The position numbers were made by a program, and so were the translations under genes. Positions 11,253 to 61,113 of a DNA stretch of 64,000 nt are shown in pieces. This stretch comes from Shigella phage ChubbyThor. The notes beneath the pieces were generated by a model. The model had not been told where the DNA came from and did no database searches. It saw only the letters and a list, made by a program, of their open reading frames with translations. Position 1 is the first letter of the stretch; the number at the start of each line of letters is the position of its first letter. Location of the stretch: sequence record OL615013; one strand, given 5' to 3'.

Positions 11253-11570
11253 TTATTTTTGAAATCCGACAAAGTCCTGGGCAATCCCCCGACAATACAT
11301 CAAGTCTTTCTTCGTTTGTGGGCTGTTTTCGGCCGCAGACATCATCATTGGTAGGTCCAGCGCATTCTCTATCTGATCAACACTGAACAGATCAAGGCGC
11401 TTCAGCTCTCCCTCGAAGTCAGACAGGAGGATAGATGTATCTTTGTCGTCCGGATGGAATTGCTGGTACGTCTCCATCCAGGCGGCGCAGGTATTCAGTT
11501 TAGACGGTGGTGTGGCGTTTACACACCCGGCCATCAGTAACAGCAGGAGTAGGATTTTACCTTTCATCAC
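11253..11570 (-). CDS. predicted lipoprotein (105 aa)
   Basis: N-terminus MMKGKILLLLLLMAGCVNA: hydrophobic signal with lipobox-like MAGC. Confidence 0.5.
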   Translation of the reverse strand: MMKGKILLLLLLMAGCVNATPPSKLNTCAAWMETYQQFHPDDKDTSILLSDFEGELKRLDLFSVDQIENALDLPMMMSAAENSPQTKKDLMYCRGIAQDFVGFQK

Positions 11571-12253
11571 TCGTTCTCCTTCATCATATTGTCGCAGTCA
11601 ACACGAGTCTGCTGGAGTTCGCGCGACATGCGAGGATCATCAAGGTTCACGCTCAGATTCGTGGCCAAGTCTTTCAGACCGTTCTGAACACGATCCTCAA
11701 AATAATGGTCGTTCTCAACCAGCCAGGCTCTGAGGCCAAGAGCGCGAGTACGCCATTCCTTCTTCAGGACGCGATCAGAGGTCTGCGTAGCGCTGTATTC
11801 GAATACTTTGATGCACTGATTGCCATCGTTGATGAGGTTCAGGTGACGGCGGCCTATCTGCACACCCTTCTGTAATGCCGGAGAAGGGAGAGAACGGCAC
11901 TGTCTGACTGTCATGCGGCCTTGGGTGCCCATTCGACCAGTCATGATAAGATCGCCAGCCTCCATGCCGCCTCGGTTAAATTCGTCGTCATTGAGGTAGC
12001 CCTTGAGGTTATAGGCTCCCTGTTTGTATCGGTTGAACTCAATCCCGGCGTTAACAACAGCAGTGGAGACGTTGCCTGTGTTCCAGAGTTCAGCAAAGTT
12101 CTCTATGGAACCAGACTTGTCGATGGCGACTGCCTGGGAGAACCCAGCACAGTAGGAAAGATCAGACCACAGTTTGTCACCTGTGGAGTTCAGCTTGGCG
12201 GCGGCGGGTAATGCCAGACCAGCCAGCACGACCCCGAGGATTAAACGTTTCAT
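11567..12253 (-). CDS. secreted/periplasmic protein (228 aa)
   Basis: Start moved to ATG at 12251-12253 with AAGGAGA SD; N-terminus MKRLILGVVLAGLALPAAA signal peptide. Confidence 0.55.
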   Translation of the reverse strand: MKRLILGVVLAGLALPAAAKLNSTGDKLWSDLSYCAGFSQAVAIDKSGSIENFAELWNTGNVSTAVVNAGIEFNRYKQGAYNLKGYLNDDEFNRGGMEAGDLIMTGRMGTQGRMTVRQCRSLPSPALQKGVQIGRRHLNLINDGNQCIKVFEYSATQTSDRVLKKEWRTRALGLRAWLVENDHYFEDRVQNGLKDLATNLSVNLDDPRMSRELQQTRVDCDNMMKENE

Positions 12254-33515: not shown

Positions 33516-33957
33516 CGAGGTACTTTCTCCAATCAATCGCATTCTTCACTTCGTATCCCAGCTTGTTCAGGCGATCCAAACAAGTCTCGATGAACTTGAC
33601 TTTTGCTTTTTGTTCTTGTAACAGAACAGACAGTTCTACATAGTCATCGTCGGCTTTGACCCATGTGTCCAGGTCAGACTTCAGGGGGCGAACCTTCAGG
33701 GGGCGCTCTGCGTAGATGTTCGGGGGTAACTCCCCTGCATAGTAGCGGCGCAGATAGAGATCGATCTGGCGGAAGCGCCCGTTGAGGAATTCAAGATAAC
33801 GCCCCTCACGCAGATAATGCCGTTGTACGGCCATCCAAGAGCGCCCGATTTTCAGTGAGATCTGGTCAAGGTTCATGTCTTCTGGGTCCACTGTAATCAG
33901 CGGCTCCAGTTCGTTCATGATGTCCTCGGTTGCCATTGTCTGTAGTTGTTCTTTCAT
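33505..33957 (-). CDS. uvsY: UvsY-like recombination mediator
   Basis: Recalled resemblance to T4 UvsY (LYLRRYYAGE vs ARLDYYSGRG; C-terminal CLDRLNKLGYEVKNAIDWRKY); same 150-aa size class; downstream of uvsW region. Confidence 0.55.
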   Translation of the reverse strand: MKEQLQTMATEDIMNELEPLITVDPEDMNLDQISLKIGRSWMAVQRHYLREGRYLEFLNGRFRQIDLYLRRYYAGELPPNIYAERPLKVRPLKSDLDTWVKADDDYVELSVLLQEQKAKVKFIETCLDRLNKLGYEVKNAIDWRKYLDGA

Positions 33958-33999
33958 AAAATATCCCAGCTTGTCAATGTCATAGAATTATACCGTATT

Positions 34000-34500
34000 T
34001 CATGGATTAGAATCAATCACCTTCCCACCAGATAGTGGGACCAGCTGCTGGAACTTGAACGTCACTGTCGTCACCAGCTGAGGTACAGCCGCATCCACAT
34101 CCACCAGTACGTTGTCCAGAGCAGTCGGACGGGCTTCCTCCAGCACGAGAGTGAGGCCAATCGGTCGGTTGAGGTTATCCAGTAATTCAATGGTAATGTC
34201 CTTGGAGACAGCCAAATCCTTGCCGACGTTGCTGGTGATCCATTGGTGGATCTGTAACCATGATTTCCAGTCCTCGTCTATAACGAAAGTAAATACGACG
34301 GGATCATAGGTTAAACGTTCTGAAGGGATAGAAACCAGTACGTCGCCAGGAGACGGACCATCGATACCTTCAGAGTACACTCCTGGTATACTGAAGTCGT
34401 GGATGTTACGGGTTAGGAGTACAAGGTCTCCGATAGTCAGACGCCACTTATCGGACGCCGCGAAATTAGGGTTTTCGTTCTTGAATTGTACGTCGGACAT
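34000..34500 (-). CDS. hypothetical protein (166 aa)
   Basis: ORF track; ATG start; no motif recognised. Confidence 0.5.
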   Translation of the reverse strand: MSDVQFKNENPNFAASDKWRLTIGDLVLLTRNIHDFSIPGVYSEGIDGPSPGDVLVSIPSERLTYDPVVFTFVIDEDWKSWLQIHQWITSNVGKDLAVSKDITIELLDNLNRPIGLTLVLEEARPTALDNVLVDVDAAVPQLVTTVTFKFQQLVPLSGGKVIDSNP

Positions 34501-48485: not shown

Positions 48486-50705
48486 TCACCGTCTCAGCCA
48501 TTCTTCCATGGACATGCCAGAGCGTTCGTCATACACCTGAACTCCACCAAACCCTGGGATACTCTCTATAGAGTGAGGATCTGGTGTTGAAAGCACACCC
48601 CCGAAAGGTAACATCTGAGATTCTTCCATCGCAGATAATCTTCCTCTCATGTCCACAGAGATACTTGAGTTTGTGAGATCACTAAACCATTCTTGTTTCA
48701 CCGCCCATGCATAGAGCACGAGAGGCATCACACAGTCATCATGACAACCATCATCGGCTTCATACCTTGTCCCAGTCCATACGAATGTACTGAGTTCATC
48801 TATCGTGTCTTGGTCATCAACCACCAGCATCTCACGTTCGATAAGCGCCTTGAGGTTAGCACAACCATTCGAACGCACTTTCTTGTTCGTGTTGATGCCA
48901 GGCTCAGGGCGGCGGCCACCAATTCGTTTGCCAGTACCCTTCGCATCTGTGGTAGTGAAGATGATCTCCGGGTATTCAATTTCCTGATATAGAATTGTGA
49001 TCACCTGGCCACCCACGTCGTTGTTGGTTTCAACCAACATCGGACACGTGCCATACTTCTCGCCCATGTCGGCGATAGTGTATGCATACATCATTGGAGG
49101 TATCGTGTTGTTCCGATACTTGGCTGCAATCTTGTGAGGATAGTCTGTGATATCCAAGATGGTCAGAACAGAGTAATCCCCCTCCACACCTTTGCCTGTA
49201 TCGGCGATACCCATGTAGATGCGCTTCGGATCGTAATCGTGGTAGATCTTGGTGAACTCGTTCGGCTCCTGATAGAGTTTCGAGGTCATCTTGTCTAGAC
49301 ACTTGGCAGGTATCAGTGATCCTACAGAACCACGGAACTTGATACCGAATTCCTGATCGAAACGTGCATCGCCCAGCTTCGCCCTCTGTTTGGATTCCCA
49401 GTTCGGATCCTTGGTGTATGTTGGAACACGATACCATGGAACCTCTGTGAGTTTGAAGTCGTTGTATTGAGGATGCTCTGGGTTCGCCTTGGTGACGATG
49501 TCGTAGAACAACCCGCGCTGACCTTTCGGCGTACTGGTCAGGATACAACGTGATGTCTCTGCAGATGCAATCGCTGGGAATGTGGACTCCCAGAATTCAA
49601 AGTCATTTTCGATGAACGCCACTTCGTCTACATACAGAAGCGATACAGATCGACCACGGATGGAGTCAGAGGATGTCGCATAAGCATAGATCTTCGACCC
49701 GTTTTCGAATTCAATCAACGTGGAGCCGAACTTCTCACAACCCTGTTGGAGGAAGAATGGCAAATCCTGGTATGCCTTGCGGATACGGTCTAGGATTTCA
49801 ATCGCCTGCTTCTCTTTGTTCGCCAGTACCGCGATCTCTTTGTCAGAGTGGAACATCGCATACCAGAGCAGGAACGCTGCTACGACTGTCGTGTTGTGGC
49901 TGAGGAAGCCGTTGGTGTAGTAGCGCTGATCACTAGATTTCACCTGCAGGTCAAACATGTGATGCATCTCACCAGTCTGCCATACCTCAACGACTTCTTC
50001 TAGACCTTCTTCGGTCATTAGCCGTGAACCAGCAACCAGATCTTTAGCAAACACTTCCTTCATGTTCTGATTGAAGAACATGTGATCATCGGCCACGTTG
50101 ATACGACGACCACTGGAAGTGATGACAACGTACTCTTGGTACAGCTTAGTCTTGTGCGCGGCGATGACAGGCACCCAGCCTTTGTCACAGCGAACAAAAT
50201 AACGCTTGCCGAAGCGGCTGTCTACGAACTTATCGTGTTTGCCAAAGGCATTCAGTGGCTCGGCGTGATTTGGTCCCTCGAAGCGGCTGTGAAGCTCCTC
50301 GATGGTGACTTTAAACTCTTCTTGGCTGAACGTATCGTAAACCTCGACGATGCTGTCACCCTTCACACACTTACCAGACTGACGCGCCTGAACCACGGCG
50401 TTGAAGCGGTGATCCTGGAAGTCATGGAACAGCTGCTTCTGATAATCATGCATATCGAAGAGGATGAAGCCCTTATCGATGGTCGTGATCTTGTAGTAGT
50501 TGGCGGCGAAGTAATGAGCGTCCATCGCGCACTCAACGAACTCCGATTCTTGATCGTCGGTCAACATCAACTCTACACGAGGAGCACGCACAGACGGCTT
50601 GCGCATGAACGTCTGGTCCATACGCAATCTGACATCATCAATCTTGAATCCCGTCTTTATCGGGGCATATTCAATATCACGCTTCTGATACGCCATCGTC
50701 TTCAC
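48486..50705 (-). CDS. 17: terminase large subunit (T4 gp17-like) interrupted by a mini-intein
   Basis: ARQSGK then 159-aa insert then TTVVAAFLLWY, versus T4 Walker A SRQLGKTTVVAIFLAHF; C-terminal nuclease region present. Confidence 0.85.
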   Translation of the reverse strand: MKTMAYQKRDIEYAPIKTGFKIDDVRLRMDQTFMRKPSVRAPRVELMLTDDQESEFVECAMDAHYFAANYYKITTIDKGFILFDMHDYQKQLFHDFQDHRFNAVVQARQSGKCVKGDSIVEVYDTFSQEEFKVTIEELHSRFEGPNHAEPLNAFGKHDKFVDSRFGKRYFVRCDKGWVPVIAAHKTKLYQEYVVITSSGRRINVADDHMFFNQNMKEVFAKDLVAGSRLMTEEGLEEVVEVWQTGEMHHMFDLQVKSSDQRYYTNGFLSHNTTVVAAFLLWYAMFHSDKEIAVLANKEKQAIEILDRIRKAYQDLPFFLQQGCEKFGSTLIEFENGSKIYAYATSSDSIRGRSVSLLYVDEVAFIENDFEFWESTFPAIASAETSRCILTSTPKGQRGLFYDIVTKANPEHPQYNDFKLTEVPWYRVPTYTKDPNWESKQRAKLGDARFDQEFGIKFRGSVGSLIPAKCLDKMTSKLYQEPNEFTKIYHDYDPKRIYMGIADTGKGVEGDYSVLTILDITDYPHKIAAKYRNNTIPPMMYAYTIADMGEKYGTCPMLVETNNDVGGQVITILYQEIEYPEIIFTTTDAKGTGKRIGGRRPEPGINTNKKVRSNGCANLKALIEREMLVVDDQDTIDELSTFVWTGTRYEADDGCHDDCVMPLVLYAWAVKQEWFSDLTNSSISVDMRGRLSAMEESQMLPFGGVLSTPDPHSIESIPGFGGVQVYDERSGMSMEEWLRR
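49893..50369 (-). mobile_element. mini-intein (about 159 aa, no homing-endonuclease domain) in the terminase Walker A P-loop
   Basis: Insert starts with Cys (codon 50367-50369) right after ARQSGK, ends MFDLQVKSSDQRYYTNGFLSHN (block F/G-like, terminal His-Asn, codons ending 49893), followed by Thr +1. Confidence 0.75.
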
Positions 50706-52078: not shown

Positions 52079-52729
52079 TTATTCTCCAAAGTCGATCTTC
52101 ATCTTGTCCACTGCAAGCCCCTTCTCAAGCACATCCGCCAAAGCATTGTCGGTCTGCAGAGAAGAATCCTTGTACACGTCCGGTTCGTTCTCTTCGTCCA
52201 AGATGGACAGACGTTTGTCGATATCGTCGATCTCCGGAACGCCTGTATCGAAGTTTTCGTTGCCGTACTGGAACAACGTGCACGGCAGAGAGAACGTATA
52301 CCATTTGCCAAATTGCATGAAGTCTTCATCGTTGTTCGGGTTGTTGACCTTGAAGATCTTGTTCGCCAGGGGCAGGTAGATCAGGTCACCTTCCTGAGGT
52401 TGTTGTTCAATCCCAACACCGTTGCCTATCACCTCAGCAAAGCGGCGGCGCGAGATAGAGAACGTCACCTCATCCTGTAGATTAATACCCCCGAACTTCT
52501 CCCACATCTGGGTGTTGAAGCCCTGGTAATCCTGCATGTAAACTTCGATGTCGAACGCTTGGTCGAATCGATGGTTTGCATCGTTGGTGACTGGGAATTT
52601 TTCAACGATGGAACGTGGTATATACTTGACGTCTATCCCACGCAACTGAATCATTTCTTGCACCAAATCTTCAATCAGCTTCTGTGTGCCTTGGTGATTG
52701 GTGGCGTTGAAATATTTTGAAGTGGCCAT
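52079..52729 (-). CDS. 14: neck protein (T4 gp14-like)
   Basis: Position between gp13 and gp15; assignment by synteny only. Confidence 0.55.
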   Translation of the reverse strand: MATSKYFNATNHQGTQKLIEDLVQEMIQLRGIDVKYIPRSIVEKFPVTNDANHRFDQAFDIEVYMQDYQGFNTQMWEKFGGINLQDEVTFSISRRRFAEVIGNGVGIEQQPQEGDLIYLPLANKIFKVNNPNNDEDFMQFGKWYTFSLPCTLFQYGNENFDTGVPEIDDIDKRLSILDEENEPDVYKDSSLQTDNALADVLEKGLAVDKMKIDFGE

Positions 52730-52752
52730 ATCGATACCCTCAATTTTGAAGG

Positions 52753-52759
52753 TATTTAG
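52753..52759 (-). promoter_or_regulatory. CTAAATA late-promoter-like motif upstream of gp14
   Basis: minus-sense CGACTAAATACC about 24 nt upstream of ATG 52729. Confidence 0.4.
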
Positions 52760-52788
52760 TCGAAGTTTATTCTTTTGAGGAATAACTC

Positions 52789-53001
52789 ATGCAAGTGGAA
52801 GACATCAAAGAAGTTCGCAGCGGTCGTCGCGTCCGAATCATCTGTGTGGATGCCAAGATTGGAGGCGGTGATTACGACATCGTCGGTCTGGTGAAGGAAG
52901 TGGATGGCACAGACTTCATTGAGTGGTGGAACTCCAAAGACAAGACCGAAGACGGCCTGCTGCGTGGTAGTGGCAACGGAAACCTGGATTTGAAAATCTA
53001 A
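52789..53001 (+). CDS. small hypothetical protein (70 aa), plus-strand gene inside the late block
   Basis: ATG with GAGGAA SD 6 nt upstream, followed by terminator hairpin at about 53005. Confidence 0.5.
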   Translation: MQVEDIKEVRSGRRVRIICVDAKIGGGDYDIVGLVKEVDGTDFIEWWNSKDKTEDGLLRGSGNGNLDLKI

Positions 53002-53004
53002 AAG

Positions 53005-53026
53005 AAGGGCGGGGGAACCCGCCTTT
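53005..53026. terminator. bidirectional terminator between convergent genes
   Basis: GGGCGGG / CCCGCC stem, loop GGAA, U-rich flanks on both strands. Confidence 0.55.
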
Positions 53027-53028
53027 CC

Positions 53029-53781
53029 TTATCCCATATAGAAGTCAATCGGGTATTGCTGGCCAGTACGAAGTTCTTCCTCTAAACGCTCGATCTCCGC
53101 TTCAGCCTCGCTGAACATAGTATCACCATCCAGCTCAATACCGCCAGGGAGACGGATGCCTCTTGCCTTCTTCAGCACCTCTGCCCAACGGCGTTTTACC
53201 AGAGCTGTTGCATACGCCTTCAGCCACATGTCATTCCATGCTTCTTCGTTCCCTTCTACCTCGGGGTCAATGTTCTGATAACACTTGAACGCCAAAGCCT
53301 CGTCCTTTGTCAGGGCGAATTGAGGGTAGAGTTTGCGCTGGAATTTCTTGTACACGAAGGTGCGCTTCACGTTCAGCACACTGGTGATGTCGGACAGGCG
53401 CTGCTGCATTGAGACATAATCGATCAGGCGGATAGACACCAGCGCTGACTTCGGCACCAACATAGCCTGCGCCATTTGCCACTGAGGGGTTGCCCAGTTA
53501 CCGATAGATTCAATTGGTGGTCCTGGAATGACTTCGGTGACGTCGTCGATATCTTTCGGGAATTCGATGTAGCCCTTCGTGATAGTGTCGTCATCAACGA
53601 CATGGACGAAGAACGCATCCTGGCTACCGTCGCGGTGATACTCCCAGAATTTCTGTAGAGCGTCATCGACAGCGTCGGACACCTGTGATGGGTCGAGGTT
53701 GATCTGAATTACGGGTGCCCCCAATTTCTTGAGGATGTAATTCATAAACCCCTTGCGGTCTCTGATAGAATTAACGGCCAT
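53029..53781 (-). CDS. 13: neck protein (T4 gp13-like)
   Basis: N-terminal ILKKLGAPVIQINLDPSQV resembles T4 gp13 ILRRLGAPIINVELTPDQI; track start is GTG, moved to ATG at 53779-53781. Confidence 0.7.
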   Translation of the reverse strand: MAVNSIRDRKGFMNYILKKLGAPVIQINLDPSQVSDAVDDALQKFWEYHRDGSQDAFFVHVVDDDTITKGYIEFPKDIDDVTEVIPGPPIESIGNWATPQWQMAQAMLVPKSALVSIRLIDYVSMQQRLSDITSVLNVKRTFVYKKFQRKLYPQFALTKDEALAFKCYQNIDPEVEGNEEAWNDMWLKAYATALVKRRWAEVLKKARGIRLPGGIELDGDTMFSEAEAEIERLEEELRTGQQYPIDFYMG

Positions 53782-54109
53782 TGACGTTCCCCTTACCACT
53801 CTGGAGATCAGATACCGTAATCCGCAGAGTTCGCACGTCGTCGGACAGACTGCTGCTATTGAGTTTTAATTCAGCAACGTTCTGCTTGACGTAGTTGACG
53901 TCTGTGTTCAATACAGCGATCTTCTCACTCATATCGTTGACTTTGACAAGGATCTGGTCAACCTTGTTAGAATCCCGCTCAACCACATCAAGACGGTTTT
54001 CGAACTTACCCATCATCCAAACAACCGAGCCAACAGAGACTATCGCCGCCGTCAGCACCCCGGTGAGGATCGCTTTCACATCGATCACAGTGTTAGTTTG
54101 AGTTGTCAT
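53771..54109 (-). CDS. small membrane-anchored coiled-coil protein (112 aa)
   Basis: Start moved to ATG at 54107-54109 with CAGGAGG SD; N-terminal TM VLTAAIVSVGSVVWMMG then heptad-like region. Confidence 0.45.
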   Translation of the reverse strand: MTTQTNTVIDVKAILTGVLTAAIVSVGSVVWMMGKFENRLDVVERDSNKVDQILVKVNDMSEKIAVLNTDVNYVKQNVAELKLNSSSLSDDVRTLRITVSDLQSGKGNVNGR

Positions 54110-54341
54110 CTTGGCCTCCTGACGGGAGTTCAATCCCGAGGTGTTCCGCCATGAGTTGTACCGTCGCTGTCAGTTGATCGATTTGCGCTGCCTGCGCTGC
54201 AATAGTTCTGTCCTTTTCTTCCTGATTACGACGGGCGTTCAGAGCCGCTAAACCAGCAGCGCTGTCTGTGCAGATGATAGCCCCAGGGCAAGAGCTACTT
54301 CTCATCATCGATGCATGCCCCTGTACTTTTACACCACGCAT
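54093..54341 (-). CDS. small coiled-coil protein (82 aa)
   Basis: ATG at 54339-54341 with AGAGGA SD; 17-nt overlap with downstream gene. Confidence 0.4.
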   Translation of the reverse strand: MRGVKVQGHASMMRSSSCPGAIICTDSAAGLAALNARRNQEEKDRTIAAQAAQIDQLTATVQLMAEHLGIELPSGGQDDNSN

Positions 54342-54360
54342 GATAATATCCTCTGTTAAT

Positions 54361-54378
54361 GGCGGGGTTGCCCCCGCC
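54361..54378 (-). terminator. GC-rich hairpin after the large structural gene
   Basis: GGCGGGG / CCCCGCC stem, loop TTGC; no strong U-tract. Confidence 0.4.
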
Positions 54379-54391
54379 TTGGTAATACTAC

Positions 54392-57300
54392 TTATGCCAG
54401 AGCAATCAAACGGAAATCTTTGAATGATGGCGGCGCTGTACGGTTGCCTCTCACCAGCAGGCGGATCTTCAGGCCAACGAAAGGATTGGTGCTGTCCACA
54501 GTCTTGTCATATTCGTATTCAAAGAATGTAGAACCATCGTTGACCAGAGGGGATGTTGGAGTCACGGTTTCCCATGCGACATCATCCATCTCCTGACCAG
54601 CGCGGAGCAGTTTCACCTGTACAGTCATTGAAGACTGAGAAGGCAGCATCGCACCGAAGTATTGCTTCAGGGTGGTGCAAGGGTTATCGAAGCCGATATC
54701 CTTGGTCACATAACTGAACACGTCTTCAAACGGATCCACCCCGTAGGTGTTGAAGATGACAGTGAAATCATCTCCATCGATCATCGGAGCCGTGTACACG
54801 TTGCTTTCGTTACGCGTCATTGTCGCCCGCACCTGGAAGTCACCCACTTGGCGATAGATGCCTTCCGTCGGCAGAGACACGTCCGTATCGGATTCGAACT
54901 CAGCCCAATCAGAGAATGAGTTGGAGGTCGCATCGCGGTAACGGTATTCCAGTTTCAATACAGATCCTTCCAGGGCTGAATTGGTGACGCTTGCGTAGAA
55001 CATGTCTACCAAGTAGTTGCCCAGGAAAGAAGCCTCTTCACCACCAATCTGCCCGTCGGAGTCGGCGTTGGAACTCAGAACAAATTTGAACGTCGTGAAC
55101 GTCGCGTCTGTCACAGTGTGTTGGGCGTTCAGTTGCTCAGGAGTGAAACCACAACCACCCGTCAGACCAGACAGGGTAACACTTTCACCCGCAGTCAGGC
55201 CATGCCCCGGCGCGTACACTGTAACAGTTGAAGAACCGTTGACACATTTCACGGTGTTCAGACCCAGAGGGCGGATCTTCGGACCGACTTTAGCATCGAA
55301 GGTCACGATGTTTGAACCAGCGGAGAAGTTACAGCGATACACACGGAACTTCATATCGGCAGTCTGGTTTGGAGTCCAAGTCGTGCCGTTGGAAGACGTG
55401 AAGAACACGCCAGTGTACGGCTGCTTGGCGATGTACTCGTTGGTCAGCAAGTTCTTTTTGCCCATCTCTGCGATGTATGCGTTGTAGTCCTGAGTGTTGG
55501 CCAGGAGCACGATCGCGAACTCAGTCTGCGCCTGCAGATACACAGGATAATCAAACTTGAACATCGTTGGTACAGAAGAGTCTGTGGAGACGGAAACTTC
55601 TGATGGGTTCAAAGTCTTACGAGTGACCACAGTCGTCGCAGGCAGGCCATTACTCATCTCACGGATTTCCAGAGTAATCGGGATATCACGGGACTTGGTG
55701 GAGAAGAAGACTTCAATCCCTTCGATGTACTCACCACCAATATTGGTAGCAACCATGAAGGATTGAGCAATCGGGTCTTTCCACTTCGCAACTTCAACCG
55801 TCTCCGTTTTGTTTTCGGTGGACTTGGTCGCAGTGTAACCCAGGACGCGAGTGTTGACATAGGTCTTTTGAATGCCCTGTTTCTTACCGAAGGATTTGTG
55901 AACCGCTTCAGCATTGGTCAGGGTATCATCAGCAGACTTGCTGTCCACAGGGCTGTCAGTCAGACGGAAGACGTTGTCGCCCGTGTTGAACTTAACAGTC
56001 TCGTTCTGAGGCACTGCGAACACGCCTTTGATATTACCGTTGGCATCAGTGTTCAGCGCGCCACCCAGTACGCCACCACTTGGAGTACAGTACGCGCTCA
56101 CATCACGCCCTGAGAAGAACGGATATACACGAGTGAACGGACGCAGGCCTGTGGCTTCGAAGTTGATGTTCGTTTTGCGCATGTATGGAATAACCTGCGT
56201 TTCAACGATCTGCTCGCCAGTCAGGGTAGTCGTCGTCTTGTCGGTGTACGTGTACGTGGTGACGTCACGGGTAGACACAGTCGTGCGGTAGCGGTAGCCC
56301 CACCATACGCCGCCTGCGCCATGTGGTTCCCACACACGCTCAGACACAGACACAGTACGCCATGTGCCATACACAGAACCTTCTTTGATCGCGCCGCGTG
56401 TGTTGATCGTTTCGTTGATCACACGTGGAGCAACATAGTAGTTCTCGAACCAGTAGTCGGTGGTCGGGTTCAGCTTCAGGAAACCTTCCCAGTTGAATAC
56501 CGCATATGGGTTCACGTTGATGGTCGTGGTCGCATAATCCTGGCGCACAGAGATCTCACGGGTGTAGTTGCATACAACCATGCCATCCTGAACGTTGTTC
56601 CAGCCTACTGGCGTCAGGTCAACCGCATTCTGCTGAACGAACGGGCGTAGGCGACCATTGTCAGTATCGATTGAACCTACCCAGTCAGCAGACAAATCGT
56701 CGATCAGACGGAAGTCTTTGAACGGGTCGGCAGCGATACCGTTTTTGAAGCGCGGGTTGCCAGTGATCGGGTCGAACACCTGCTGAGTCATAGCTGAAGA
56801 TTCCAGCTGTGACAGTGAGGTGTAGTATTCAACATTGGAGATACGGGTCTCCAGTTTACCGATATCACGCATCGTGTAACGACGGTTGTCGATGGTACGA
56901 ATCTGAATATCGTCGATGTTGGCCGTGTAAGGCGGGATCATCAGTTCGTACAGACGCATGCCGTTGTCTGGGATCGCAGGCGAAGCCAGGTTGTTGGAAC
57001 TCACACCACGCGCCACATTGAACACGCCGTTGTCGGCCAGATACACAGCATCAATACGAGGCAGGTAGTACTCCGCATCGAGGACGATAGCAGTGTTCGG
57101 GCGAACCATATCAGTGTCGGAAGCGCCGCTGGTGATCTTAGGACGGAAGTCCAGGCAGTCTGCCAGGCCATACACAGTACCAGAACTGGACGAAACATAG
57201 TTCGGAATGTCTGGGTAATCGATGGAAGAATAGGAATCCGCTGTGAAGAAATCACCAGAGCTGTGAGCGAAATACTGATACACCACCGTGAACGTCCCTG

Positions 57301-59230
57301 AAATGGCTCCAGTGCCCGATAACAGGTTAGAACGATAGTATGCAGCATCACGCTGGCCGCCGTCCAGAGTGAAGTTAGAGGTGACGTCAGCGCCACTTGC
57401 ATTCTTCACGCTGACCAGCTTGTAGCCGTCGTGGTTGTTCAGCTGTACGCTGGCCGCCGAAGTGAACGTCACAGTCTCGGTGACTTCGGTAACAGTCTTG
57501 GTCTTGATCGTCGCTGTGGTGCGGACCATCAGTGCCAACAGGTTGATAGACTGGTTGGCGTACCCCGCACCCAGGGAAATCTGCAGTGCTGAACCGACCG
57601 GAGTACCAGTCAGGGACAGTCCCGAAGAGATATCAAACTGAGCTGCAGTGCCGTCTGCCTTCGCCGCTGAGTACAAAGAGAATTCAGGGCTGAAGCTGTA
57701 ACCCAGAGGAGCAGAGATAGAGCCTGCGCCTGCCGCGTTCAACGTGATCTTGTTTGACCGCAGGACGGTGTAGTTGATGTCGATGGTCCCCGTAGGAGCC
57801 AGCGTCTTCACACCAAATACAGGCAGAGGGAAGATCAGGTCAATTGCTGAACTCTGGCTGAACTGATTAGACTCCAGTTCGCAAGAGAACATTGTTGTAC
57901 CGCTTTCTTCGTATGCAACTTTGGTGACAGTACCCATGTCCCCAGTGACAACGAGGTCGCGCATATACAGACGGAATTCCGCTCCAGAACGTTCTGCTGA
58001 AATCAGGAGGGCAGTGGCCTGGACAGCGCTGGATGCGTTCAGGAACTTGTAACGGATTGTGCGAGAGACAACCGGAACCCCTTTGGAGTTCTTGGACACC
58101 AGATAGTTGCCAGTCGCAACAGCCACAGGGTTGTTGTTCAGGGTATCGGTGTCACGGGCTTTATCAATAGTGACCAGCTCTTCGCCGAGGTTTTCGATAC
58201 GACGGCCACGAACGTAGGAGATCCCTGGCTTCATGACCGCCACGAATTTGCTTGCGTCACCACCTTCGGCAGGAGTATAAACGCCACCGTTGTTGTTCTG
58301 TTTCAGATGTTCACGCAGGTCGATCTGATGAGTGGAGACGTTGTAATCCCCGTTGGTCTCATAAGTGCGCTGCGCCATACTGTCTTCGAGGATGTTGTAG
58401 GTGGACTGGGTCACCATGGACTGAATGCGCCCATCTTTGACTTTCGCCAGCTCTACGAAGTCCGCCACTTCTTCATCATAACCGAAGCGTGACAACACCA
58501 GGTCCACGCGGAAACGGTGCGCGCCAGGGGCTTTGGAGTTTGGCGTTCCCTGAGCATTGGAGAATAGGCTTTCATCTTCTACTTCAGTGACGATGGTCTC
58601 TGTTACTTTGAAGCCCACCCGGTGTGAAGTAGAGTTGGAAGCGTTGTCGACGATCAGAGTTGCTGGCTCAACGTCCAGGAACATACCGCGGACGAAGTAA
58701 ACGCCTTTGGTCATACGAGCAACGATAGAGCCACCCACAGTCGCAGCAATACCATAACCGATACGAATGAAGTTATCGTTCACATCGTAGGTGTTGAAGT
58801 ACAGGTTGTCGCCGACGCCAAAGCCGTCAGATGAACCACTTTCAGTCATCTCGAGGATAGCGTACATCGTATCCGGTTCTGAAACATAGCGCTCCAGGGA
58901 CAGCACACGCGCCTTGGCGTTGTTGTCTTTGCCCAGGACGTACAGTTCTGCAATGTTCTCCAGGTCGGTGAACTCGGTGCCGCCAGCCAGAGTGAATTTC
59001 ATAGACACGGCTGTATTGGTGATTGTCAGGCCACCGGGGATAACCATCGAACCGTCTTTGAACAGATGGTTCCCGAGTTTCTCCAGCTGATCCTGGAAGA
59101 TGGTCTGCATCTGGTTCAGTTCACGGGTCTGAACTTTGATAGGAGCCGGACGAAACAGGATGCGTGAAAAACGCTTCTCTGGATTCCAATCATCCCAGTA
59201 TGGGCGGCGGTTGAGGTTCATTTCTTGCAT
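54392..59230 (-). CDS. very large virion structural protein (about 1612 aa), likely tail/baseplate or fibre component
   Basis: Single long ORF in late block; start moved to ATG at 59228-59230 (MQEMNLNRRPYWDD...); Thr/Ser/Asn/Gly-rich beta-type composition. Confidence 0.6.
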   Translation of the reverse strand: MQEMNLNRRPYWDDWNPEKRFSRILFRPAPIKVQTRELNQMQTIFQDQLEKLGNHLFKDGSMVIPGGLTITNTAVSMKFTLAGGTEFTDLENIAELYVLGKDNNAKARVLSLERYVSEPDTMYAILEMTESGSSDGFGVGDNLYFNTYDVNDNFIRIGYGIAATVGGSIVARMTKGVYFVRGMFLDVEPATLIVDNASNSTSHRVGFKVTETIVTEVEDESLFSNAQGTPNSKAPGAHRFRVDLVLSRFGYDEEVADFVELAKVKDGRIQSMVTQSTYNILEDSMAQRTYETNGDYNVSTHQIDLREHLKQNNNGGVYTPAEGGDASKFVAVMKPGISYVRGRRIENLGEELVTIDKARDTDTLNNNPVAVATGNYLVSKNSKGVPVVSRTIRYKFLNASSAVQATALLISAERSGAEFRLYMRDLVVTGDMGTVTKVAYEESGTTMFSCELESNQFSQSSAIDLIFPLPVFGVKTLAPTGTIDINYTVLRSNKITLNAAGAGSISAPLGYSFSPEFSLYSAAKADGTAAQFDISSGLSLTGTPVGSALQISLGAGYANQSINLLALMVRTTATIKTKTVTEVTETVTFTSAASVQLNNHDGYKLVSVKNASGADVTSNFTLDGGQRDAAYYRSNLLSGTGAISGTFTVVYQYFAHSSGDFFTADSYSSIDYPDIPNYVSSSSGTVYGLADCLDFRPKITSGASDTDMVRPNTAIVLDAEYYLPRIDAVYLADNGVFNVARGVSSNNLASPAIPDNGMRLYELMIPPYTANIDDIQIRTIDNRRYTMRDIGKLETRISNVEYYTSLSQLESSAMTQQVFDPITGNPRFKNGIAADPFKDFRLIDDLSADWVGSIDTDNGRLRPFVQQNAVDLTPVGWNNVQDGMVVCNYTREISVRQDYATTTINVNPYAVFNWEGFLKLNPTTDYWFENYYVAPRVINETINTRGAIKEGSVYGTWRTVSVSERVWEPHGAGGVWWGYRYRTTVSTRDVTTYTYTDKTTTTLTGEQIVETQVIPYMRKTNINFEATGLRPFTRVYPFFSGRDVSAYCTPSGGVLGGALNTDANGNIKGVFAVPQNETVKFNTGDNVFRLTDSPVDSKSADDTLTNAEAVHKSFGKKQGIQKTYVNTRVLGYTATKSTENKTETVEVAKWKDPIAQSFMVATNIGGEYIEGIEVFFSTKSRDIPITLEIREMSNGLPATTVVTRKTLNPSEVSVSTDSSVPTMFKFDYPVYLQAQTEFAIVLLANTQDYNAYIAEMGKKNLLTNEYIAKQPYTGVFFTSSNGTTWTPNQTADMKFRVYRCNFSAGSNIVTFDAKVGPKIRPLGLNTVKCVNGSSTVTVYAPGHGLTAGESVTLSGLTGGCGFTPEQLNAQHTVTDATFTTFKFVLSSNADSDGQIGGEEASFLGNYLVDMFYASVTNSALEGSVLKLEYRYRDATSNSFSDWAEFESDTDVSLPTEGIYRQVGDFQVRATMTRNESNVYTAPMIDGDDFTVIFNTYGVDPFEDVFSYVTKDIGFDNPCTTLKQYFGAMLPSQSSMTVQVKLLRAGQEMDDVAWETVTPTSPLVNDGSTFFEYEYDKTVDSTNPFVGLKIRLLVRGNRTAPPSFKDFRLIALA

Positions 59231-59264
59231 TTTGATGCTCCATCGATAGGTGCCATTATAGAGA

Positions 59265-59271
59265 TATTTAG
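59265..59271 (-). promoter_or_regulatory. CTAAATA late-promoter-like motif upstream of the large structural gene
   Basis: minus-sense TACTAAATATC about 35 nt upstream of ATG 59230. Confidence 0.4.
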
Positions 59272-59300
59272 TATACAGCCAACCGAGGAATAGAAAGAAA

Positions 59301-59322
59301 AAGCCCCTCATCTGAGGGGCTT
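59301..59322 (-). terminator. intrinsic terminator after tailspike-like gene
   Basis: AAGCCCCTCA / TGAGGGGCTT inverted repeat; minus-strand RNA continues UUUCUUUCUAUU. Confidence 0.65.
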
Positions 59323-59328
59323 TGTCTA

Positions 59329-61113
59329 TCAAGCGGAAGCATTCCATTGGCCAGCATTGATCACCCATGTGCTCGTTACTTTTGAATACACCATTTTCAC
59401 GAGATTCATTTTCGTGGTGGCGGTGTTAGCGCCAGTCACATCAACAGGGACACCCGCTATGCTCAATGAAGCAATGTTTGAACCTCTCAGTAAAAACGTC
59501 AGCTCCATACCATCATATGGCGTACCAGTAAATGCGATGTTGGAACCAGAAGAAACGTTTCTTCGATAGCACCCATAACCGCTGTTTATGTCGACAGAGT
59601 CAGTTGTGAGCTGTAATGGCAATTTTCCACGACTTAGTTTACATGCCGTTACAACGCCGAGATCATCAATGCCTCGACTTGCACCCCAACGTGCGATGTT
59701 GACTATGTGGCCAGTCACACCAGCGTCTTGCGCACCACCAATGTCGAAGAAACCTCCAGCCCTTGTACCCCATATCGGCTCATCAATCAAGCTGTTGGTG
59801 GAGCCAGTTACACTATAACCATGTGCGAGGGTTCCTTGGCTTGGAGAAGAGTGTGTACAATCTCGGAATGTAGCATCTTGAGAACCACTGATGCGGACAT
59901 CAGAGATACTATTGTTCTCGTAATACATTCCATATACCTTTGTTCCCTTGGCCTGATCCAAGAAACCATACTTCGTGGTATTCTGGCTGAACCCGTTAAC
60001 AAAACAGACTGCTTCTGTGGGGAATGTTGTGGTGTAATCCCAAGAGGTCCCGCCGTCGGTGGAGTGTCTTACGATAATACCATAATCTGGCATATCCACT
60101 TCTGGTGCACCGGAATAACCGTCAAATCCTGTTATCACAATAGCATTGGCACCGTTCTGTACTATTAACCGACTAGAACCAGCCCCGCCGCCGATAACCT
60201 CGCAACCGTCTATTTTCAAACCGTAGCACAAAGTCCCTATCTCTATCCCGACATTATTAATGGCCGTCCCCATGTCTACCCACATCATATCCAGATGTCC
60301 ATGGTTCCTCCAATATTTGGCTCTGAAAGCGACGCAACCCGTTTTACCATTCAATGATATTCTGATATTGTGTAATTTGCAGTTTCTCACTGCATTGCCA
60401 CCAGAACGGGAAGGGTCAATCGTGAGAACACCGACATTATTTCCACCAGCCAAGAATAATGCACCGGAATGTGCATAAATTTCAGAGTTAGGATAAAACG
60501 CCAACGCCTGGCCAGTTACCGTATAGTTGCCAGGAAGAAACTGGAATGTCCCACCCTGGGATAATTTAGTTTGTATAAGAGACTGAGACATCGAAGGGTC
60601 GATGACAGTTAGACGATAAAACCCAGAGTATAACTCATCTCTCAATGCATCTGGATCCAATTTCACCCAGTTAGAACTTGACAACCCACCAGTATTGGCA
60701 ATGGTGCTCCCAGCATTTACAGATTTGGGTAAAGTACCACCCCAACGGTAAAGGCTTGTACCATCAGAAACGACTTCATTTCTAACACGTATCGTGAACC
60801 CCGAATCGAAGTTTTCGACCAAAGTTACAAATTCCTTCCGAAGCACTGCAAGAACCCCCAGGTCTACAGTGCCCGTATTGTGTACGAGAATGCCGTCTGT
60901 CAGGCTGGTGATGGTAGCGCCAGCGGGCAGGTTGGAAGGCAGTGCATAGGAGCGCTGAGTGACCTTATCGTAGATCACCTTGTAACCAGTCAGGGTGGAT
61001 CCTGGTTTAGCATAGAGAACCTCAGACTTCTTGCACCCAAACTTACGAGCAATGGAGTCTTTGTTTGTCTCCTTAGAGACAGAGCCTTTCGGCTGTGAAA
61101 ATTGCGGATTCAT
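59329..61113 (-). CDS. tailspike-like protein with right-handed beta-helix region (putative depolymerase)
   Basis: Repetitive G/N/V/I-rich segments (NAVRNCKLHNIRISLNGKTGCVAF ... GIEIGTLCYGLKIDGCEVIGGGAG) typical of pectate-lyase-fold tailspikes. Confidence 0.6.
   Translation of the reverse strand: MNPQFSQPKGSVSKETNKDSIARKFGCKKSEVLYAKPGSTLTGYKVIYDKVTQRSYALPSNLPAGATITSLTDGILVHNTGTVDLGVLAVLRKEFVTLVENFDSGFTIRVRNEVVSDGTSLYRWGGTLPKSVNAGSTIANTGGLSSSNWVKLDPDALRDELYSGFYRLTVIDPSMSQSLIQTKLSQGGTFQFLPGNYTVTGQALAFYPNSEIYAHSGALFLAGGNNVGVLTIDPSRSGGNAVRNCKLHNIRISLNGKTGCVAFRAKYWRNHGHLDMMWVDMGTAINNVGIEIGTLCYGLKIDGCEVIGGGAGSSRLIVQNGANAIVITGFDGYSGAPEVDMPDYGIIVRHSTDGGTSWDYTTTFPTEAVCFVNGFSQNTTKYGFLDQAKGTKVYGMYYENNSISDVRISGSQDATFRDCTHSSPSQGTLAHGYSVTGSTNSLIDEPIWGTRAGGFFDIGGAQDAGVTGHIVNIARWGASRGIDDLGVVTACKLSRGKLPLQLTTDSVDINSGYGCYRRNVSSGSNIAFTGTPYDGMELTFLLRGSNIASLSIAGVPVDVTGANTATTKMNLVKMVYSKVTSTWVINAGQWNASA

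Follow-up and report, generated by a model that had tools for sequence, protein, structure and literature searches.

Two small genes between the VriC and gp13 genes of Shigella phage ChubbyThor: a candidate partner of DUF4815 tripod proteins and a predicted membrane-anchored coiled coil

In the 64,000-nucleotide stretch of Shigella phage ChubbyThor (sequence record OL615013) analysed here, hereafter the window, two small overlapping genes, which we call ORF82 and ORF112 after the lengths of their products, lie on the minus strand between the genes for the giant baseplate protein VriC and the neck protein gp13. Both are genuine genes under purifying selection, and a gene of the ORF82 family stands directly 3' of a giant gene of the DUF4815 class at 13 of 13 loci drawn from five phage lineages. 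ORF112, judged from its sequence, is a bitopic membrane protein specific to Ackermannviridae, whose stalk resembles trimeric fibres and whose conserved end would serve for docking. ORF82 may be seen as a cytoplasmic partner dedicated to the assembly of the DUF4815 tripod protein, like the downstream-encoded fibre chaperones though not homologous to them—a reading that, in our estimation, has about as much for it as against it. The wider account, in which ORF82 is the tripod partner and ORF112 a membrane anchor for a late partner, is favoured here tentatively and stands somewhat short of an even chance. The Ackermannviridae, or ViI-like phages, find wide use in therapy and biocontrol, yet no function has been assigned to about half of their genes; ORF82 and ORF112 are ordinary conserved hypothetical genes of this kind, now given useful new comparative context, and neither point is surprising enough to shift current views without experiments.

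Gene structure and conservation

ORF82 (54093..54341, minus strand; Ag3 orf00204) encodes 82 aa (8.6 kDa, pI 5.5) and ORF112 (53771..54109, minus strand; Ag3 orf00203) encodes 112 aa (12.2 kDa). Both start with ATG and agree with the annotation of Shigella phage Ag3 (Ackermannviridae, Agtrevirus), to which positions 52700-55500 of the window are 98.8% identical, with indels separating the two phages outside this interval; to 286 records of the same family the identity is 60-99%. A mechanical listing of open reading frames (ORFs) stretches ORF112 to a TTG at 54133, giving 120 aa. A Shine-Dalgarno site AGAGGA lies 7 nt before the ATG of ORF82 and another, AGGAGG, 6 nt before that of ORF112. The two genes overlap by 17 nt, and the stop of ORF112 overlaps the start of gp13 (53781) by 11 nt, with both overlaps being retained across genera. 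Transcription on the minus strand thus runs from VriC (59230-54392; the first gene of the operon, for a DUF4815 baseplate protein, VriC/VrlC) through ORF82 (54341-54093) and ORF112 (54109-53771) to gp13 (53781-53029; the final gene of the operon, 250 aa, identified as the neck protein or head-tail adaptor Ad2 by PHROG 211 at E=3.4e-42 and by the Ag3 annotation); next in order come gp14, gp15 and the small and then the large terminase subunit.

A first-pass annotation of this DNA had described the two frames with their lengths, their 17-nt overlap, their good Shine-Dalgarno sites and their location between gp13 and a large structural gene, and all of this was borne out. It had taken the 112-aa gene as the first, whereas the 82-aa gene comes first in transcription and the 112-aa gene, as the second, abuts gp13. 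Its anatomy was right and its framing by comparison with T4 partly right.

That both genes are real is borne out by their distribution and their mode of evolution. Translated searches (tblastn) matched ORF82 and ORF112 in 282 and 284 phage records, respectively, all of them Ackermannviridae or obvious relatives. Against LIMEstone1, Vi01 and Menlow, the ratio of nonsynonymous to synonymous substitution rates (dN/dS) is 0.16-0.25 for ORF82 and 0.05-0.14 for ORF112, and even in the Vibrio member, where identity falls to 24-30%, the gene order is unchanged. A literature search found no gene-essentiality screens for Ackermannviridae, and by sequence and profile searches of the PDB with ORF82 and ORF112 no phage structure contains either protein.

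ORF82 and its linkage to DUF4815 genes

The upstream gene sets the context for ORF82. VriC matches Pfam DUF4815 at E=4e-60 (204 bits against a cut-off of 30) and, below the 25-bit cut-off of that family, Phage_spike_2 (E=0.0013, 19.5 bits). Its residues 712-1307 match, at E=9.4e-52, a 1152-aa DUF4815 chain of the phage 812 baseplate structures (PDB 9EUF series), and on this similarity VriC is a DUF4815 homologue of the baseplate tripod protein of phage 812. The tripod protein, gp119, is a trimer docked on the baseplate arms (PMC13433997). The matched chain is taken to be gp119 because of the entry descriptions of 9EUJ/9EUK and the gene order of phage K, in which a 1152-aa DUF4815 gene occurs in the order arm scaffold, arm segment, tripod; PMC13433997 itself gives no chain lengths. 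In the virions of Ag3 (band A), LIMEstone1 and Sajous1 (311 spectra) VriC is one of the major proteins, and a review had earlier proposed it as the protein of the Ackermannviridae prongs. ORF82 and ORF112 thus have a baseplate gene on one side and a neck gene on the other, and are not in a whisker module. The initial comparison with the T4 site of wac and gene 12 holds insofar as ORF112 is directly upstream of gp13, but the large gene is a homologue of the DUF4815 tripod gene and not an equivalent of gene 12 or wac.

Being directly 3' of a DUF4815 giant gene is a mark of family membership devised in this analysis, and ORF82 bears it. The 13 loci comprise eight from Ackermannviridae (the window, LIMEstone1, Vi01, Sajous1, Menlow, Serratia 2050H1, Kevin and Vibrio 1.255.O) together with those of S-SM1, P-SSM4, S-SSM7, Pseudomonas phage pf16 and RL38J1. 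Across these loci the stop and start codons often overlap, and in the last five the ORF82-family gene starts at the stop of the giant gene or a few nt from it. The giant genes of the window, S-SM1, S-SSM7, pf16 and RL38J1 score above the Pfam DUF4815 cut-off; that of P-SSM4 was assigned by its VrlC annotation and belongs to the same gene cluster as that of S-SM1, and at the unscored loci in general the assignment to DUF4815 rests on a VrlC annotation, the Vi01_169 note or sequence identity to VriC of the window. What comes after the ORF82 homologue, on the other hand, varies: Ackermannviridae have a TM (transmembrane) coiled coil there and cyanophages an acidic coiled coil that is soluble, pf16 has a non-membrane protein of 189 aa that by eye is beta-rich, and RL38J1 has a 597-aa fibre. 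Because of this variation, ORF82 is tied to the upstream DUF4815 gene and not to gp13 or ORF112. Likewise, since the ORF82 family is widespread (Ackermannviridae, cyanomyoviruses, pf16 and a Rhizobium phage) while ORF112 is confined to Ackermannviridae, the two are not an evolutionary pair.

ORF82 combines an N-terminal beta-hairpin, with the motif KVxGHxxxxR...PGxIxxTD, with one amphipathic helix, an invariant LGIExPxGG and an acidic disordered tail; in its AlphaFold2 model (both proteins were predicted as monomers) the beta-hairpin spans residues 12-24 and the helix 27-68, followed by the disordered acidic tail. It had initially been called a soluble coiled coil: it has no TM segment (Kyte-Doolittle maximum 1.14), but its heptad signal is weak (6/10 positions, shuffle p 0.05-0.23) and the term coiled coil fits it only in part. 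The suggestion of a membrane-targeted pair fails for the same lack of a TM segment and applies to ORF112 only. In profile searches, ORF82 matches PHROG 4322 (E=8.5e-44 over residues 1-81) and PHROG 473 (E=1.6e-5), the latter being matched by 16/17 aligned members of the family, and this PHROG 4322/473 family, an old one of small proteins, corresponds to the cyanophage cluster T4-GC112. An exhaustive hidden Markov model search of 1.84 billion representatives with the ORF82 profile yielded 13 matches at E<=0.001. Distant relatives carry IKVxG...LVRDxxxGAIINTD and then a helix; tblastn with two of them matched 144 and 147 phage records, mostly of cyanomyoviruses, and the first query alone also matched Klebsiella and other Ackermannviridae as well as Pelagibacter, Rhizobium and Pseudomonas phages. 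A Foldseek search with the ORF82 model found nothing below E=3 in the PDB, and in BFVD its own family only. An identity of ORF82 as an o-spanin or lipoprotein was rejected: no hydrophobic leader precedes its SSSC motif, and the Erwinia and Vibrio homologues do not retain the cysteines.

The published virion proteomes complement this picture. No member of the ORF82 family appears in the 39-protein list of LIMEstone1 (Table 2), in Table 6 or the searched peptides of Sajous1, or, as T4-GC112, in the proteomes of S-SM1, S-PM2 and Syn9 (Table S8). VriC or VrlC is abundant in four of these five virion proteomes; S-PM2 has no VrlC gene.

For ORF82 we infer an assembly role and the identity of its partner from the above. 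It would act in the cytoplasm on the tripod protein as a trimerisation or assembly chaperone or as a transient adaptor, with its N-terminal hairpin and LGIExPxGG binding the partner and its helix oligomerising, and would then be largely excluded from the finished virion. An assembly chaperone was among the functions first suggested for the two genes; it survives as the preferred reading for ORF82. Chaperones encoded downstream of their clients, such as Tfa and gp38, typically lie directly after the client gene, just as ORF82 lies directly after VriC. A parallel might also be struck with T4 gp57A, which is similarly about 80 aa, acidic, mostly helical and not a major virion component: by analogy, a large baseplate or fibre protein may need ORF82 in order to fold or trimerise. 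T4 gp57A differs in having no counterpart of the N-terminal beta-hairpin motif of ORF82, and T4 57A is not beside its client genes. Homology between the two was rejected, with hhalign giving a probability of 1.15% and aligning only a 17-residue motif. If ORF82 is indeed such a partner, it would offer a handle on the folding of baseplate receptor-binding complexes of a large and widespread class, whose carriers are Ackermannviridae, marine cyanomyoviruses, pf16-like and rhizobial phages. The engineering or recombinant production of DUF4815 tripod proteins would then profit, and the label "virion structural protein, head and packaging" in the databases would be put right.

A similar arrangement is seen in Staphylococcus phage K/812, where the tripod gene is followed by a hairpin and then by a small, largely helical 52-aa ORF (phage K 26564-26722). 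This ORF is, however, shorter than ORF82 and without the KVxGH...GAIINTD motif, and it was rejected as a homologue of the ORF82 family (hhalign probability 0.2%), the likeness being positional only. Its equivalent in phage 812, which by number would be gp120, between the tripod protein gp119 and RBP1 gp121, is absent from the phage 812 baseplate paper (PMC13433997).

ORF112 and the competing functional readings

The hydrophobic segment of ORF112 spans residues 13-33, with the best 19-residue Kyte-Doolittle mean, 2.02, at residues 14-32; in the alignment it is closed by a conserved W-x-M-G, and Gly, Ala, Ser and Thr make up 45-57% of it in enterobacterial homologues and 39% in the Vibrio phage. 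Residues 43-102 form nine unbroken heptads in a single register, with V/I at a and L/M/I/V at d. Over 63 residues, 16/18 a/d positions are L/I/V/M, a count that 0/5000 shuffles reach (maximum 14), and the original description of an N-terminal TM segment followed by a coiled coil therefore stands. The AlphaFold2 monomer is a single helix from 11 to 106 (mean pLDDT 68). Residues 73-103 are almost invariant across genera, solvent-facing positions included (N84, S85, S87, S89, D90, D91, R93, T94, R96 and T98), and it is because this near-invariance extends to all helix faces of the C-terminal 30 residues that they may be read as a specific docking surface and not as a mere spacer.

When the profile of the family is compared with the PDB, T4 fibritin comes out best, over 38 residues of its coiled coil (E=0.0054, residues 59-96), and the trimeric autotransporter stalk SadA second (2wpr, E=0.023), while the single sequence matches fibritin at E=0.26; the coiled coil is thus probably of the fibre type and trimeric. 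The protein belongs to PHROG 3961, of unknown function, has weak Pfam matches to LPP (E=0.012) and XhlA (E=0.064), all under the family thresholds, and gives no match to holin families, its PHROG and Pfam matches being weak coiled-coil ones. It shares with Lpp and the trimeric autotransporter stalks the polar b/c/e/f/g positions and V/I/L cores, and IMG names some homologues "Lpp" automatically; unlike Lpp, it has neither lipobox nor signal peptide, is phage-encoded and would be anchored by a TM helix instead of lipid. A profile search of 5.8 billion proteins, seeded with the Erwinia, Serratia and Vibrio homologues, recovered Ackermannviridae only. The second small cyanophage gene (T4-GC401) was rejected as a homologue (hhalign probability 0.06%).

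From this anatomy we infer the oligomeric state and membrane topology of ORF112: a single N-terminal TM helix would be followed by a coiled-coil stalk of about 95 Å, for whose orientation the cues conflict, the count of K+R (1 vs 3) placing the C-terminus inside and the net flank charge tally placing it outside. ORF82 and ORF112 look like late genes of one unit that runs from VriC, for the baseplate tripod, through a hairpin, ORF82 and ORF112 to gp13, for the neck, and ORF112 might, during morphogenesis, tether to the inner membrane a late partner that is itself conserved, the candidates being ORF82 with VriC, or gp13. Such a membrane-anchored tether is the likeliest of the readings of ORF112, though still well short of an even chance. 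ORF112 is in any case a clean candidate for a late membrane-linked step, be it in assembly or lysis, in a family without a known holin.

Several points weigh against this joint account of the two genes. ORF82 has no homology to any characterised chaperone (hhalign 1.2% with gp57A; nothing by Foldseek against the PDB). PHROG and RefSeq label its family "virion structural protein", and the record of Serratia phage 2050H1 names the pair "structural protein" and "capsid protein"; the origin of the "virion structural protein" label was not traced, the S-SM1, S-PM2 and Syn9 table being without T4-GC112. At 8.6 kDa, ORF82 is also easily missed by gel-based proteomics. As for ORF112, a stalk on the periplasmic side would have no contact with cytoplasmic assembly intermediates, and we know of no membrane-tethered tail or neck assembly factor in T4-like phages. 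Moreover, the gene after the ORF82 homologue is a non-membrane one in other lineages, and the tripod pathway therefore needs no membrane protein in general.

The main alternative for ORF82 is that it is a small structural subunit kept on the VriC tripod in the virion, for instance as a trimeric plug or a baseplate adaptor. The strict linkage to DUF4815 genes would suit such a subunit equally, as would the labels of PHROG 473/4322 just mentioned. The tripod trimers of phage 812 are fastened through short docking loops that enter a crevice (PMC13433997), so that a small separate docking peptide is conceivable. The family nevertheless went undetected in five virion proteomes in which VriC/VrlC or other structural proteins were detected, and small size alone does not explain its absence from Sajous1, because a 56-aa protein was detected there. 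We regard a retained subunit as rather unlikely.

For ORF112, a function in lysis comes next: it would be the missing single-TM holin or an i-spanin-like stalk whose C-terminus meets an outer-membrane partner, with ORF82 being functionally unrelated. Its layout, an N-terminal TM segment and a helical stalk in 112 aa, matches an i-spanin, and the likeness to lambda Rz and T4 PseT.3 extends to a coiled-coil helix, a size of about 110-150 aa and late expression. The T7 holin gene 17.5, too, follows a tail-fibre gene. Ag3, Vi01 and relatives have been classed as spanin-less (Kongari et al. 2018), and no holin has been identified in Ag3; the endolysin that RefSeq marks has no TM-like segment, and none of its three neighbouring genes encodes a membrane protein. 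The TM segment of ORF112 is rich in small residues, as are SAR or holin helices, one homologue is named "Holin" in UniRef, and the weak XhlA match points the same way. Yet, in contrast to the i-spanins, ORF112 has no second helix, no adjacent or embedded o-spanin gene and no sequence similarity to them (tblastn at E<=1 found Ackermannviridae only); it lacks cysteines as well as a hinge that would separate two helical segments, its coiled coil being one unbroken helix, and its neighbours are gp13 and ORF82, the latter with no signal peptide or lipobox-type leader, and not a lipoprotein gene. The only lipoprotein found (MKGKILLLLLLMAGC..., PHROG 3843, "Rz-like spanin" in RefSeq) is encoded at 11256-11567 on the minus strand, and a 228-aa gene (11570-12253, minus strand) with an N-terminal hydrophobic signal or anchor lies directly upstream of it, in the canonical i-/o-spanin order. 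This one lipoprotein of the family is thus about 42 kb from ORF112, with its own upstream gene already in the i-spanin position, and by tblastn it is undetected in the Erwinia and Vibrio members, which keep ORF112. The gene order at the lipoprotein, together with the lack of hinge, cysteines and an adjacent lipoprotein gene in ORF112, weakens the case for an i-spanin. In Menlow, a genome of the Center for Phage Technology, the ORF112 gene was left as "hypothetical protein". Further, a near-invariant C-terminus and fixed synteny with gp13 are, in our own judgement and to our knowledge, unusual for lysis genes. On the whole, a lysis protein seems improbable.

The third possibility for ORF112 is a virion part, namely a minimal fibritin-like trimeric collar fibre whose hydrophobic N-terminus is buried in the gp13/gp14 neck, with ORF82 as perhaps a second small subunit of the neck or tripod. 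The T4 gene order is 12-wac-13, and ORF112 has the position of wac, being immediately upstream of gp13 and overlapping it; fibritin is its best PDB profile match, some records give the pair "structural" labels, and the Ackermannviridae virion, according to a review, has a collar with no assigned gene. The minimal whisker or collar component of the first-pass annotation finds support in the fibritin match and in the fibre-type coiled-coil sequence, but in ORF112 a TM-like N-terminus stands where fibritin has its neck-binding domain, and there is no foldon, the sequence ending ...SDLQSGKGNVNGR as soon as the coiled coil is over. Fibritin has 487 aa. The PDB alignment with fibritin covers 38 coiled-coil residues and stops at residue 42 of 74 in 1avy, which we take to be before the foldon. 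The match was accordingly treated as a fibre-type similarity and ORF112 was rejected as a homologue of fibritin. The hydrophobic segment, whose Kyte-Doolittle mean is 2.0 and whose interfacial Trp is conserved, resembles a true membrane anchor, and no PDB chain matches ORF82 or ORF112.

The proteomic support for a virion part is likewise thin, with ORF112 being at most a trace in virions. In CsCl-purified virions of Sajous1, the ORF112 homologue gp142 is represented by two spectra, of the peptides LNSSSLSDDVR and MAIMNTDLAYVK, against 33 for gp13 and 311 for VriC; this is on a par with non-structural proteins in the same data, where there are 1-2 spectra for the RIIB-annotated proteins, 1-4 for the terminase subunits and 1 for a membrane protein. 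From the LIMEstone1 proteome, in which traces of rIIB and ligase were detected, ORF112 is missing, and the Wac-like annotation of that phage belongs to a different gene, ORF161. Virion proteomics, proposed at the outset as a check, thus yields in published data the two Sajous1 spectra for ORF112, while ORF82 is in none of the five proteomes and ORF112 is not in that of LIMEstone1. A collar fibre is, in our view, quite improbable.

That ORF112 is an inner-membrane element of an unconventional lysis system, either a single-TM coiled-coil holin of a new kind or one half of a "split" spanin whose outer-membrane half is the PHROG 3843 lipoprotein (which, if true, would be the first two-component spanin with unlinked genes), is highly doubtful, and whatever likelihood is left over from the tether, lysis and collar readings falls to ORF112 being something else.

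Transcription signals and neighbouring genes

The four genes from VriC to gp13 look like a single late operon because, in a consensus scan, a promoter-like site and terminators bound them. The promoter-like site, TTGGCT-16-TATAAT, lies upstream of VriC (59255..59282, minus strand) and is probably the start of the transcription unit; the LIMEstone1 record has a putative late promoter annotated at the equivalent position. It is preceded by a terminator-like hairpin (59300-59323, minus strand), and another such hairpin (53008..53023, minus strand) lies 3' of gp13 at the end of the operon, where the Ag3 and Menlow annotations have a rho-independent terminator. The large gene had at first been started at 59368, and the mechanical ORF is indeed 1658 aa long, extending VriC by 46 codons (59231-59368); as this extension contains both the terminator-like hairpin 59300-59323 and the promoter-like site 59255-59282, the annotated start at 59230, which gives 1612 aa, is the plausible one.

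Between the stop of VriC and the Shine-Dalgarno site of ORF82 is a GC-rich hairpin, GGCGGGG-GCAA-CCCCGCC (54357..54374, minus strand), without a U-tract. RNA folds of the intergenic region place a hairpin of different sequence at the same spot in 8 phages of five genera plus the unclassified Vibrio member, with 7-9 bp hairpins 3' of VriC in LIMEstone1, Vi01/Sajous1, Menlow, Serratia 2050H1/Kevin and Vibrio 1.255.O. This element may be an attenuator or an mRNA-stability element that tunes the ratio of VriC to the downstream genes. In phage K, too, a terminator hairpin is annotated 3' of the DUF4815 gene.

Three further genes may be recorded here. On the opposite strand, between gp13 and gp14, a 70-aa ORF (52789-53001, plus strand; PHROG 4466, of unknown function) is convergent with gp13, such that the bidirectional terminator at 53008-53023 is common to both; it is conserved in Ag3, Vi01, Menlow and Sajous1. 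The 109-aa gene between gp41 and uvsX in Ag3 (33847-34176, orf00060) occupies what we take to be the position of T4 gene 40, for a membrane-associated head-assembly factor, and might be its Ackermannviridae equivalent. Finally, the large terminase subunit (48486-50696, minus strand; 736 aa) contains an apparent mini-intein at about residues 123-227, which begins with Cys and ends with His-Asn followed by Thr, and which matches Pfam Intein_splicing at E=6.9e-6 with 26.4 bits, under the cut-off of 35.8 bits.

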